Shown here piece after piece: positions 7,981 to 47,563 of a stretch of DNA of 64,000 nucleotides; within the stretch, counting starts at the first letter, position 1, and every line of letters starts with the position of its first letter. Source of the stretch: Eledone cirrhosa (taxonomy: Eukaryota); contig OZ024759.1 of NCBI GenBank assembly GCA_964016885.1, positions 30,566,001 to 30,630,000 of the forward strand. Direction: 5' to 3'. The position numbers were made by a program, and so were the translations under genes. The notes under the pieces were generated by a model, which saw nothing but the letters and a program-made list of their open reading frames with translations, searched no databases and was not told the DNA's origin.

Positions 7981-8540
7981 ATATTGTTATACTTTGCGAG
8001 GGTCATGTTGCCAATAAGAACACACGCACCAGTTGCTTTCACTTCAATTTATTATAATAAATTTATAAATTTCCGGTTGGTTGGTTGGTTGGTTCCACAA
8101 CCAGATGGTTGTTTATATATTGTGAAAGTTCTTTCGTCACACATTCTGTGACCTCTTCAGTGACTGCGGGTTCTTTTCTTTGTTCTTTTGTGCCTCTCCT
8201 TTGTTCTGTCCTACGCCATGAAGATGGCGTAGGACAGAACAAAGGAGAGGCACAAAAAAACAACAACAAAAAACAAAGAAAAGAACCCCAGTCACTGGAG
8301 AGGTCACAGAATGTGTGACGAAAGAACTTTGACAATATATAAACAACCATCTGGTTGTGGAACCAACCAACCAACCGGAAATTTATAAATTCCTAATTTT
8401 ATAAATTTATTATAATAAATTGAAGTGAAAGAACTGGTGCGTGTGTTCTTATTGGCAACATGACCCTCCCAAAGTATAACAATATGGGTTTCAACACACG
8501 TTTTCAGATAAAGAATCTTGCTAAACAAATTCAGAAACGA
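7981..8540 (+). mobile_element. Hairpin+tail element family B, ~505-bp palindrome with hammerhead in both arms
   Basis: Arms 7981-8219 and 8224-8485, loop GAAG; hammerhead 8290-8334 (+, core mutated to CTGGAGA) and mirror near 8123-8166 (-, CTGAAGA); tail 8486-8540. Confidence 0.9.
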
Positions 8541-9091
8541 TATACACACACACACACACACATATATATATATATATATATATACCTATGTGTAGTTTTG
8601 GAGATACATTTTGTCATGACAATATTAACTGATGTATACATGTATATATATATATATATATATATATATATACATGTGTATGTTTGTGTGTGTATATACA
8701 TATCTTTATATATACATACACACACACACATATATATCGATTCATACCTTATATATATATTATATATATATATATATATATATATATATATATATATATA
8801 TAGAGAGAGAGAGAGAGAGAGAGAGAGGGGGGGAGATTGAGAGAAAGAGACAAATAGAATCAGATATACTAAGTGAATTATGTAAATCTCAAATAATTTA
8901 TATGAAAATAAAAGTGCTTTATATACCCGAGGGTGGAGGTGGTGGTAGCAAACGCTTGTGATTCAAATAGCTGTATGTATGTTTACAAAGGAAATTGAAA
9001 TTTAACTACGTTTTGTATACTCAATATACGTTAAACGATCAATACGAGACATATAAAATATATATGTATATATATATATATATATATTTAT

Positions 9092-9350
9092 TCAGGTTTG
9101 AGGTTCACCACTGTATAGAGCTGGTCTATTCCGTAGGGTCAATCTCAATGCAATAATATAGAGAGTACTCAACGTAAGGCAGTTCAACCGTCTTTGTTTT
9201 TGTAGTTGGTGGTGCTATTACGCAGTTAAATATTATAATGAAATGACAGGAGGCTGGATTTGTGTAAATCCTTGACAGGTTTATTATACTATGATCATTT
9301 CAATGACCGGGTTCCGTATGAATCCGGTGATATCATCAGGTATTCGAAAT
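9092..9350 (-). mobile_element. Hammerhead-bearing element family D in (TA)n
   Basis: Homologous to 23913-24030; minus strand carries a hammerhead, then AATAAA, then a tail containing TTGAGTACT. Confidence 0.75.
9286..9343 (-). ncRNA. Type I hammerhead ribozyme with long stem II
   Basis: Minus strand ATAC-CTGATGA-tatc-ACCGGATTC-ATAC-GGAACCCGGT-catt-GAA-ATGATCAT-A-GTAT; stem I ATAC/GTAT, palindromic stem III, AUA cleavage triplet. Confidence 0.75.
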
Positions 9351-11439
9351 ATAATTATATATATATATATATATATATATATATATATATATATTTCGTT
9401 TCTGAATTTGTTTGACTCTCCAAAAGTATTGAAATACCAATGATAGTTGGAGGATCACCGATGAAGGACTAACTTTATTCATATATATATATATATATGC
9501 CTATATCTATCTATTTATTTATATATATATAATGTATATATATATATATATATATATATATATATATATATATATATATATATATATAGAGAGAGAGAGA
9601 GAGAGAGAGATATATTACGTATGTATGTATATATATATATATATATATATATATATATATATATATACCCACAAATACATACATATATCGTATTGAACGT
9701 TTAACGAATATCGAGTGTACATAACCTACTTAAATTTATATATATATACATTTTAATATACAGTATATATATATATATTTATATATATATATATATATAT
9801 ATATATATATATATATATATATATATATATATATATATATATATATATATATATATATATATATATAATGTTGAAATATTTATGGAATTGAATTGCATTC
9901 TACCGCGTCTAGCTTAGGGCTATTTGCCTCGCAAAGCTAAGCTTGAACGATATTCCTGGCCAGGAATATAAATATATTATAAATATTTAATAAAATATAA
10001 CTCGATGCACTTTGCGTACATATAAGAAGAATATATTTGAATTTATAGATATTTCAAATTAATGCTTACAGGTGTATATCTAATATTAGTTTGTTTACTG
10101 GCTTAGAAATGATGGGGTAGCGGAGATGAAAGGTTAACATGTAAGTCATAAACTTTCTGGCTCTCACTCGCTCATTCACATACTCTCTCCCTCTCTCTCC
10201 CTCTTTATGTATATATCTTTCTATCTATCTATATGTCTATCCATCTCTCCCTCTCTCTCACTCACTCATTCACAGACACACTCATTCTCACACACACTCT
10301 TTCTCTCTCTCACCCTCTCCCTCTCTCTCACTTACTCCTTCACAGACACTCATTCCGACACACACTCGTTCTCTCTCTCCCTCTCACTCACTCACAGCCA
10401 TATTCTTTTTTTTTCTCTCTCCCCCTCACTCACTCACTCATTCACAGACACATTCATTTTTTCAACACACACTTTCTCCCTACCCCTCTCTCTCTCTCTC
10501 TCTCTCTCTCTCTCTCTCTCTCTCTCTATATCTCTCTACCGCCCCTCTCTCTCTCCTTCTTACAGACTCTCATCACATCTTTCTACCCCTCACCCCCACA
10601 TAGTAATTCCCTCACTATCACTCTCACTCCCCCGTTCCTTCTCACACATACCCCTCTCTCTCACACACAACCTCTCTCTCTCTCTCCCAGTCTCCAACTC
10701 CTCCCTTTCACAACCATCGCATCTCATTTTTTTTTTATTTTTGTTCCTTATTTCTCATATCATTCCTTCTACTTCAATAAGTCCGCCATCTTAACGCAGG
10801 GTATTATTCTGAGTATTTTGACTGGAAGGTTACTTCAAGAACTAAGACATTGGTAAGATCGAACGAGAAGACCCCGAAACAAAATTGCTGCAACAATAGA
10901 TGCTTGTTAGTGTCTTTTATACATACATTAGGTTTGGGGTGGCGAAGGCGAAGTAGTTTCAATTCTTCTTTCACCAACAGTACACAATACATGCATACAC
11001 TATGTATGTATGTATGTCTGTATGTATGTCTGTATGTATGTATGTATATATGTATGTATATATGTATATATGTATGTATATATGTTTGTATGTAAGCATG
11101 TTTGTATGTTTGTATGTATGTATGCATGCCTGTATATGATATATATATATATATATATATATATATATATATATATATACTTGTATGTATATATATATAT
11201 ATATATATATATATATATATATATATATATATATATATATATATATATATATATATGTGTGTGTGTGTGTGTATATATGTTGGCATACAAACACGCATAT
11301 GAATATATGTATATGTATATATATGTATATATATATATAAATATATATATACATATATATGTATACCCATATGCATATATATGTACATGCATTTATACAT
11401 AAATATATATATATACATATAAGTGTGTATATATATATT

Positions 11440-11765
11440 TAAAGATTAAACAAGGTTCAATGAATAAATCAAAGAATTAGTTTTACAATAGATTGGAAGC
11501 ACTCAACTGTATTTGGTTTTCCGGAGTTATAATATTAATTCTAAATATTAACAAAAATAGATCTTCTTGTGATCAAGTATATTTTATTATACATATTTCA
11601 GAGGTACTGAGCTAACTTCAACAATACGTCCTCATCAGATAAAATAAGATGATGCATGACATACCTTGACATAGTAGATGGTTAAGATCCATGACCTCTG
11701 AAATATGTATAATAAAATATACTTGATCACAAGAAGATCTATTTTTGTTAATATTTTGAATTAAT
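11440..11765 (-). mobile_element. Hairpin+tail element family E (~73-bp arms, ~88-bp spacer) with degenerate hammerhead
   Basis: 11533-11605 inverted to 11694-11765; minus strand CTGATGAGG...CCTCTGAAATATGTA at 11590-11638; tail to the left contains TTGAGTGCT on minus strand. Confidence 0.7.
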
Positions 11766-45427: not shown

Positions 45428-46111
45428 TTTAAAATATTTACATATTTCTTTTACCGGTTTCACAGTTATTATGTTTTTCAAAAGTAGAATTGAGATGGAG
45501 GGTTTGTTGTTTGTCTCGCATCTCGTACGTATAGTTATATATATATATATATATATATATATATATATATAGAAAAAAAAAATATATATACACACACACA
45601 CACATATACATATATATATATATATATATATATATATATATATATATATATATATATATGTGTGTGTGTGTATGTGTGTGTGTGTGTACATGATGAGGAC
45701 GATGATGATGATGGTGATGATGATGTTGATAATGATGGTGATGATGATGATGCCGCGGATGTATTAATTCGATCTAATTGCAATCAAACAAGAAATTAAA
45801 ATGTTCAGAAACACAATCAAGGACAATTGTTAATTAAATTAATTTTTCAATACACATTCATTGGTAGTGTGAACTGATTAAATAAATTATAAACCCAAGC
45901 AAACACAAGCAACATCAAGTACTGCAACACAAACGGTATATTAAACATACACACACACATACACATACACCCGCACACACATATATATATATATGGGCAT
46001 ATATATATATATATATATATATATATATATATATATATATATATATATATATATATATATATATATATATATATATATATATTTATATATATATGTATAT
46101 ATATATATATG

Positions 46112-46912
46112 TATCTATCTATCTAAGGCGGGTAGAATTCCCGATATCCATGGACGAGTTCTCTCCAGCGGTCTCTGTCCCTCATTATCGCTGCCATATC
46201 CTGCATCTCCAACAGACCAGTGTCTGTCCTTAGGGCATCAACATATGTTAACCTTGGTCTTCCTCTTGTAGTGTGTCCATGTAGGGGCTCCCAAAGGAGC
46301 ACTGAGTGCAATGTCAACTCTGGATGTCGGTGAGCATGTCCAGCCAACCTCAGTCTCCTCTGTGTCACTTTTGAGCTGACTTTTGGGATGCTCCCATACA
46401 GCTCTGAGTTTTTCATCCTCAGTGTATACTGATTAATGTTCAGAGCCATCCTCAGCATTCTCGTGTAGCACCCATCCACCATCTGAGTGAGTCTCTTGGT
46501 CAGTGTCCAAGTCTCAGACCCATACAGCAGCACAGACTCCACTACAGCAATGAAGAGGCGGATTTTCAGGTCTCTACGAAGGTCCGACTTCCACACCGAT
46601 CTCAAGCTGTGGCACGCCGCCCAGGCCTTGCTCTTCCTCTCAACCACATCATCTTCCGTATTCCCAATCTTTGCTCCCAAATACAGGAAGTCCTCAACCA
46701 ATTCCAGCGGCTTCCCGCCTACATTAGTGATCTCCTCTGGCTTCTCAACATTCTCTACCAGATATTTTGTTTTAGTCTCGGTATCGGATGCTGAATTTGC
46801 CGACGACATAGTTTTGGTGACAAATACAGTGAAGGAGGCAGAGGATTTGATGCGGGAGGTTGAGACTGTGTCGATGAGTGTGGGGCTGAGAATGGATGAG
46901 ACTAAAACAAAA
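46112..46912 (-). mobile_element. RTE-group LINE, 5'-truncated with 5' inversion; uninterrupted RT C-terminal frame
   Basis: Minus 46123-46779: [49 protein letters not shown]; plus 46780-46912: EFADDIVLV..VGLRMDETKTK; short (TAGA)n tail. Confidence 0.92.
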
Positions 46913-46971
46913 AAAAAAAATATATATATATATATATATATATATATATATATATATATATATATATATAT

Positions 46972-47563
46972 ATATTGTTATACTTTGGGAGGGTCATGTT
47001 GCCAATAAGAAACACACGCACCAGTTGCTTTCACTTCAATTTAATTTAATATATATTTATAAATTTACAAATTTATAAATTTCTGGTTGGTTGGTTGGTT
47101 CCACAACCAGATAGTTGTTTATATATATATAGTCATAGTTCTTTCGTCACACACTCTGTGACCTCTTCAGTGACTGGGGATTTCTTTCTTCGTTTCTGTG
47201 CCTTTCCTTTCTTCTATCCTACGCCATTTTGTTTGACACACACAAACAAAATGGCGTAGGATAGAAGAAAGGAAAGGCACAGAAACGAAGAAAGAAATCC
47301 CCAGTCACTGAAGAGGTCACAGAGTGTGTGACGAAAGAACTATGACTATATATATATAAACAACTATCTGGTTGTGGAACCAACCAACCAACCAGAAATT
47401 TATAAATTTGTAAATTTATAAATATATATTAAATTAAATTGAAGTGAAAGCAACTGGTGCGTGTGTTTCTTATTGGCAACATGACCCTCCCAAAGTATAA
47501 CAATATCGGTTTCAACACACGATTTCAGATAAAGAACCTTGCTAAACAAATTCAGAAACGAAA
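46972..47563 (+). mobile_element. Family B hairpin+tail, 535-bp palindrome (264-bp arms, 7-nt loop)
   Basis: 46972-47235 mirrors 47243-47506 with no mismatch seen; tail 47507-47563; (TA)n on both sides. Confidence 0.93.
47303..47347 (+). ncRNA. Complete minimal type I hammerhead (mirror copy 47131-47175 on minus strand)
   Basis: AGTCA-CTGAAGA-G-GTCACA-GAGTG-TGTGAC-GAA-AGAACT-A-TGACT; CUA site. Confidence 0.85.

Follow-up and report, generated by a model that had tools for sequence, protein, structure and literature searches.

How does a short palindromic insertion arise: is it copied whole from a palindromic parent, or is it built anew at each insertion? A 64,000-nt stretch of the Eledone cirrhosa genome (contig OZ024759.1, positions 30,566,001 to 30,630,000; hereafter the window), the evidence base for all sequence results below, raises this question. 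The window has 31% G+C, with dinucleotide and homopolymer runs totalling 12,132 bases, and was compared with itself by BLAST with microsatellites masked. It holds 18 palindromic elements of six unrelated families (A, B, D, E, F and H), which occupy 4,190 bases or 6.5% of its length. All families share one layout, in which an inverted tail-less arm stands head-to-head with a sense arm followed by a one-sided tail, and both orientations are represented. The insertions are 75-590 nt long and consist of the palindrome only, without an open reading frame (ORF). TA runs of at least 12 nt adjoin at least one end in 11 of the 13 elements measured, the exceptions being B1 and A4, and target-site duplications or microhomology joins are illegible inside such runs, those of the B copies included. 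The palindromes are short dead insertions in (TA)n; Penelope-like retroelements (PLEs), of which they would be truncated ends, are their most likely source. To the fuller reading, that each palindrome of these truncated PLE ends was built during its own insertion through dual priming, snap-back and capture, we give an even chance.

Mirrored variants and turn points

Each arm-bearing copy of family B consists of a TA run, a tail-less antisense arm, a loop of 4, 5 or 7 nt, a sense arm, a tail of ~55 nt and another TA run. The family comprises:

7981..8540, + strand: B1; tail-less antisense arm 7981-8219, loop GAAG 8220-8223, sense arm 8224-8485, tail 8486-8540
22204..22558, + strand: B2; loop CACAC 22365-22369, the turn lying inside stem II of the hammerhead motif described below
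46972..47562, + strand: B3; 264-nt arms with 0 differences, loop ACACACA 47236-47242, tail 47507-47561
9394..9413, - strand: B4; lone tail end of 20 nt with a TA run after it and without an inverted arm

The copies at 7981, 22204 and 46972 begin at their outer end with ATATTGTTA, the first 4 nt of which are indistinguishable from a TA run. Their tail lies on one side in 3/3 cases, with 1-2 differences in 54-55 nt. The initial annotation, an earlier note made from the sequence, had all family B copies starting in this way and sharing the tail; this holds for the three arm-bearing copies, but B4 is a tail end without a palindrome. It had also placed the B turns at different sites, and the loops GAAG, CACAC and ACACACA are indeed found there, 239 (B1), 161 (B2) and 264 nt (B3) in from the outer end; within a copy, the two arms differ by no more than 7 nt in length. 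B1 is the oldest copy, its arms diverged and its flanking TA runs decayed. B2 carries one gap of ~30 nt in its tail arm, which its tail-less arm exceeds by 4-6 nt, and B3 is flanked by TA runs of 56 and 62 nt. Used as a query on the window, the B sense arm finds the three arm-bearing copies, the solo tail end and nothing else; therefore, the symmetric copies were not chosen from a larger asymmetric set. TA-run length was set aside as an age clock, being suggestive only: B1 combines short runs with diverged arms, but in A9 the arms are diverged although the runs are long. The 5' part of the B sense arm contains AA(A/G)ATGGCG (47247-47256; 8221-8230), which we presume to resemble a YY1 site, and the B1 turn directly adjoins this stretch at 8221-8230.

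Substitutions between B copies number 17 in 233-246 columns for B1-B3, 4-6 in 127-159 for B1-B2 and 2-3 in 133-161 for B2-B3. Between the two arms of one copy, the substitutions are 4 in 233 columns for B1 (with 5 gaps), 0 in 133 for B2 (with 1 gap) and 0 in 264 for B3. The observation of the initial annotation that copy-specific variants occur in both arms is upheld by the four-arm columns. The 488 pairwise columns of family B include 23 mirrored, 0 arm-inherited, 22 single-arm (a count inflated by alignment around the B1 indels) and 2 other differences. The 215 columns of family A include 17 mirrored, 0 arm-inherited, 11 single-arm and 0 other; this count covers 4 of the 10 arm-bearing A loci and omits the six that are short, deleted or diverged. 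In both counts the copy pairs are not independent. The A loci are the following:

2362..2554, + strand: A1; 58-nt perfect arms, 2-nt untemplated centre, 77-nt tail
7812..7954, - strand: A2; orientation opposite, tail-less arm longer by 20 nt, 2-nt overlap (CG)
17950..18020, + strand: A3; tail-less arm folded back via a 2-nt overlap (TA), second arm ~10 nt, no tail
31493-31650, + strand: A4; tail-less arm longer (by eye)
49480-49588, + strand: A5; tail-less arm longer (by script)
57572-57763, + strand: A6; tail-less arm longer (by eye)
57832..58041, + strand: A7; 57-nt identical arms and a further 8 nt with one mismatch, no polarity call
58935-59009, + strand: A8; tail-less arm longer (by script)
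59089-59270, + strand: A9; tail-less arm longer (by script)
51066-51140, + strand: A10; tail-less arm longer (by eye), no recognisable tail
5503..5538, - strand: solo fragment of family A that stops at the tail-less end, next to a TA run

Three family A variants had been quoted as private and mirrored. Two of the three are not private: the A7 variant is also found in A8 (58935) and in the 5503 fragment, and the A2 variant in A3 (17950). Variants common to several A copies therefore mark source sub-lineages. A2 and A3 have a common variant yet different turns, which favours building at each insertion.

MITEs (miniature inverted-repeat transposable elements) and foldback DNA transposons are likewise short and non-coding, with long inverted repeats and TA-rich sites. 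The palindromes here differ from them by the one-sided tail, the hammerhead, the solo tail fragments and the lack of distinct inherited left and right ends. We rejected a MITE identity because the terminal repeats are not inherited as distinct ends (0 arm-inherited against 40 mirrored columns) and a tail of 55-77 nt extends beyond the repeat at one end; on this point, the initial annotation was right. Such palindromes could nevertheless be mislabelled as MITEs.

The remaining families and their solo relatives are:

31091..31290, + strand: D1; arms 65 nt, tail 68 nt, the turn lying at the 5' edge of hammerhead stem I
21615-21746, - strand: D2; relative of D1, solo, with tail
50196-50270: D3; relative of D1, tail-less arm joined straight to the tail
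11478..11768, - strand: E; 70-nt arms, 88-nt spacer with a hammerhead core in tail-arm orientation, tail arm longer
23354..23855, + strand: H; arms of 112 nt, spacer of 213 nt containing a hammerhead-like motif that has decayed (by eye), tail ~60 nt, tail arm longer
52990..53197, - strand: F; arms ~65 nt, 18-nt loop, tail on the left
47750-47798, - strand: solo relative of F, ending at the tail-less end

Under independent uniform truncation, the chance that three B turns have arms equal within 7 nt is 0.0002-0.003 (ranges 250-100 nt). This low chance suggests that the end of one arm sets that of the other, as fold-back does. No two junction sequences are alike. The overlap at the junction is 1 nt at B2 against the B3 template (one unmatched base against B1), 2 nt at A2 and A3, and 3 nt at A4 (by eye), and 2-4 central bases of B1, A1 and D1 are unmatched by the available template. 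The tail-less arm is longer in 10 of the 18 elements, as called by script for B2, A2, A3, A9, A5 and A8 and by eye for A4, A6, A10 and D3. The tail arm is longer in two, E and H, judged by the hammerhead orientation in the spacer; three have equal arms with an untemplated centre, and three (B3, A7 and F) allow no polarity call. Hence the tail-less arm is the longer one at 10 of 12 resolvable junctions.

A single-primer model requires a tail arm at least as long as the other and therefore does not fit this polarity. The initial annotation had a truncated cDNA fold back and self-prime up to a defined stop or nick site. Its fold-back agrees with the 40 mirrored against 0 arm-inherited columns and with the symmetric turns, but a single tail-primed cDNA is at odds with the 10 of 12 junctions. 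The stop or nick site is not supported either. Of the solo fragments, B4 and D2 stop at the tail end and those at 5503, 47750 and 24027 at the tail-less end, all of them bordering a TA run, and the tail-less end corresponds to a PLE start site in vitro (PMC11167929, accessible text). From these two observations, the fixed outer end would be better read as a second reverse-transcription start site.

Penelope-like features and known systems

PLE membership rests on architecture, since no parent ORF was found. The features present are the head-to-head inverted 5'-truncated copy, the tail on one end, a minimal hammerhead in the repeat and an A/T-rich or microsatellite target. Two features of family B bear on it:

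47303..47347, + strand: predicted minimal hammerhead of type I within the sense arm of family B, with a 5-bp stem I, the core CUGAnGA, a 6-bp stem II, GAAA and a rudimentary stem III
47481..47561, + strand: ATG frame of 27 codons extending from the end of the arm across the tail, uninterrupted in 3/3 B copies

A strict hammerhead descriptor matches the window six times (B3 twice, D1 twice, D2 and one unrelated locus) and each of 100 block-wise dinucleotide shuffles 0 times, and family A shows the 3' half only. Minimal hammerheads are typical of metazoan PLE repeats, according to the accessible portions of PMC4209133 and PMC6155905. The B motif shares with them the type I core, the rudimentary helix III and the base often found between position 9 and stem II; it differs in a loop 3 that is partly palindromic only and in giving no Rfam hit. 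A non-LTR retrozyme was rejected as a candidate, the copies being dispersed and head-to-head rather than head-to-tail tandem hammerhead repeats. The D1 turn (31158-31163) and the end of solo D2 (21742-21746) both lie at the 5' edge of hammerhead stem I, and stem II or its surroundings hold the turns of B2, F and family A. Further hammerhead-like cores occur in short non-palindromic repeats at 3134(-), 17604, 20800(-), 23927, 31769, 39250(-), 53619, 9339(-) and 47832(-), which are likely remnants of other PLE repeats.

The 27-codon frame is a candidate for the N-terminus of the parent ORF. A word-index protein search with its peptide returned nothing, and no true homologue was found; the one phmmer match (E 5e-4) was to a peptidase C39 protein through a short repeat and was judged to be chance. 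The tails of the unrelated families A, D, E and F and an element at 9090-9350 contain T(T/A/C)GAG(T/C)(A/G)CT, counted without a chance control, at 2501, 31242, 11506(-), 9172(-), 53025(-), 57713 and 59216. The tail joins of A5 and A8 lie at or adjacent to this motif, a candidate binding or start signal. Of the 24 sequencing runs listed, 3 contain half or more of the words sampled, none of those listed being an RNA run, and one motif scan each of JGI metagenomes gave 0 matches for family B and 0 for family A.

In long interspersed nuclear elements (LINEs), twin priming uses two primers from the two target ends, and the resulting pieces barely overlap. In R2 insertions, the 3' end of the cDNA snaps back on itself before joining, as the available text of Zhang et al. 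2024 (PMC11371274) describes. The palindromes here differ in the complete overlap of their arms and in having two fixed outer ends. An endonuclease-positive PLE insertion comprises a pseudo-long terminal repeat (pLTR), an adjacent inverted 5'-truncated copy and a 30-40 bp tail at one end, in (TA)n targets (Craig et al. 2021, PMC8557442, in the part available), and the pLTR and tail encode the first 22 residues of the ORF (Arkhipova et al. 2013, PMC3846280, likewise in part). The present insertions share the head-to-head truncated copy, the one-end tail, the (TA)n targets and, in family B, a candidate frame running from the repeat into the tail. They differ in being palindrome only (75-590 nt) without an ORF, in tails of 55-77 rather than 30-40 nt, and in their high density. 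Self-priming on an antisense template was inferred in 2013 from palindromes at inverted PLE junctions (PMC3846280, accessible text), whereas we favour cDNA snap-back; the making of PLE inverted structures was still called undefined later (PMC8557442, accessible text).

In vitro, the protein of Poseidon, a PLE of Anolis, acts on the two strands of an A/T-rich target, each of which it nicks and extends, and its reverse transcription begins at two RNA sites bounding the tail (Frangieh et al. 2024, PMC11167929, as far as its available text goes). Poseidon shares with the palindromes here the tail between two start sites, the A/T-rich targets and the hammerhead upstream. The available main text of that paper gives no model for the inverted junction; snap-back and capture are our own inference. 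We did not find a dual-primed model with snap-back and capture in the open-licence literature, and the accessible parts of PMC13282606, PMC6431247 and bioRxiv 10.64898/2026.07.22.740005 hold nothing on junctions. The architecture and the self-priming idea are already in print; what is new here is a hint on which strand folds back.

A proposed building of the palindrome at insertion

In the reading we prefer, an endonuclease would nick both strands of the TA run, as one PLE does in vitro. From each nick, cDNA synthesis on the RNA of the element would then begin, in one case at the outer start site, which would yield the tail, and in the other at the inner one, which would yield the fixed tail-less end; two start sites are known in vitro, and on this reading they would serve opposite strands. 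One cDNA, more often that from the inner site, may stop early, snap back via a microhomology of 1-3 nt, or via a small number of untemplated bases, and copy itself, as the junctions suggest. The sense copy so made would be complementary to the other cDNA and could anneal to it, closing the gap. Both arms would come from one source lineage, so that variants are common to both and there is one turn point; after insertion, the arms would diverge like two LTRs. That PLE integration has a built-in polarity, with the inner-site cDNA folding back and its copy capturing the outer (tail)-site cDNA, we propose only tentatively and consider rather more doubtful than probable. If it is true, a single mechanism accounts for the tail as well as for the fixed ends and the head-to-head layout of the palindrome, and the genome is a dense natural record, with 18 events in 64 kb. 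If this density is typical (~280 per Mb), the genome holds a very large junction set, in which junction polarity could separate single-primed, dual-primed and antisense-template models computationally.

Several findings weigh against this reading. Rfam gives 0 hits at gathering score, the hammerhead folds are no more stable than those of shuffles (z -0.04 to -1.9), and the 173 ORFs listed for the window include no PLE reverse transcriptase or GIY-YIG endonuclease. The tails, at 55 (B), 77 (A) and 68 nt (D), are longer than the 30-40 nt described in the accessible part of PMC8557442. A1, with its 2-nt centre, and B1 have no templated microhomology. Without the non-overlapping joins A5, A8 and D3, which are recognisable in one direction only, the polarity is 7 versus 2, too few for a bias, and later central deletions can also lengthen the tail-less arm relatively and mimic polarity. 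The sample is one window with three arm-bearing B copies and 18 elements in all. In addition, the turns of family A lie close together around a single site and many of its copies are old; a few palindromic A masters with unstable centres are possible.

Such masters, if copied whole, could by later central deletions and arm-to-arm correction give both the variable turns and the mirrored variants. Palindromes can be corrected arm to arm by gene conversion or template switching. The confinement of family A turns to one small region, the deleted look of several A copies and the mirrored variants common to several copies agree with this. We still regard it as quite unlikely, given 0 arm-inherited against 40 mirrored columns and a B2 that is shorter by ~100 nt per arm, which would require a symmetric deletion. 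Moreover, arm divergence has gone uncorrected in B1, A9, A4, A6, F and H, yet B1 retains 15 mirrored differences from B3. The perfect arms of B3, A1 and A2 might instead suggest fold-back chimeras of the library or assembly, but the arms of older copies have diverged, the outer ends are fixed, the tails stand on one side, both orientations occur and six families without relation to one another are involved, which leaves that a negligible chance.

If a single cDNA primed at the tail end folded back and copied itself to a fixed stop or nick, with longer tail-less arms as later deletions, the mirrored variants and symmetric turns would be accounted for equally well. E and H, with longer tail arms, fit this, the A/T-rich arm ends could join a TA run by microhomology, and R2 offers a known case of snap-back followed by joining (PMC11371274, available text). 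We consider it unlikely, however: the longer tail-less arms of B2, A2 and A3 come with clean 1-2 nt overlaps, those of B2 and A2 without any arm-to-arm substitution, and solo fragments end at the tail-less end, which in vitro is a start site (PMC11167929, accessible text). The palindrome might also be made at the RNA or cDNA stage, by self-priming on antisense RNA before integration, as proposed for rotifer Penelope elements in the available text of PMC3846280. This yields mirrored variants and head-to-head geometry, but alone it leaves unexplained why there are two fixed outer ends at a distance of 55-77 nt, matching the sense-RNA start sites of PMC11167929 (as given in its accessible part), and we hold it to be very unlikely.

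Neighbouring repeats

A short interspersed nuclear element (SINE)-like family C, presumably a cephalopod tRNA-derived SINE by resemblance, occurs as a pair at 27545-27918 and at 4789, 20238, 21231, 24948 and 58224. The pair is joined tail to tail through an A/T-rich spacer and differs at 11 of 175 columns (6%); its distance to two other copies is 17-21 of 176-180, and one arm differs from a third copy at 6 of 109. We rejected it as an instance of the same phenomenon, since the join is tail-to-tail and the arm distance is no lower than that of one arm to a third copy. Two more small imperfect inverted repeats lie at 2754-2833 and 45334-45427, with no tail identified. A 159-codon frame at 4050-4529 has no Pfam hit; we take it to resemble the C-terminal endonuclease region of a site-specific LINE.

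B3 lies in a TA run at the end of a fragment at 46126-46925 that we class as an RTE-like LINE. This fragment carries a 5' inversion, with a piece bearing the FADD motif on the + strand, the downstream part on the - strand and an overlap of ~15 nt where the sequence is A-rich, the arrangement expected from twin priming.

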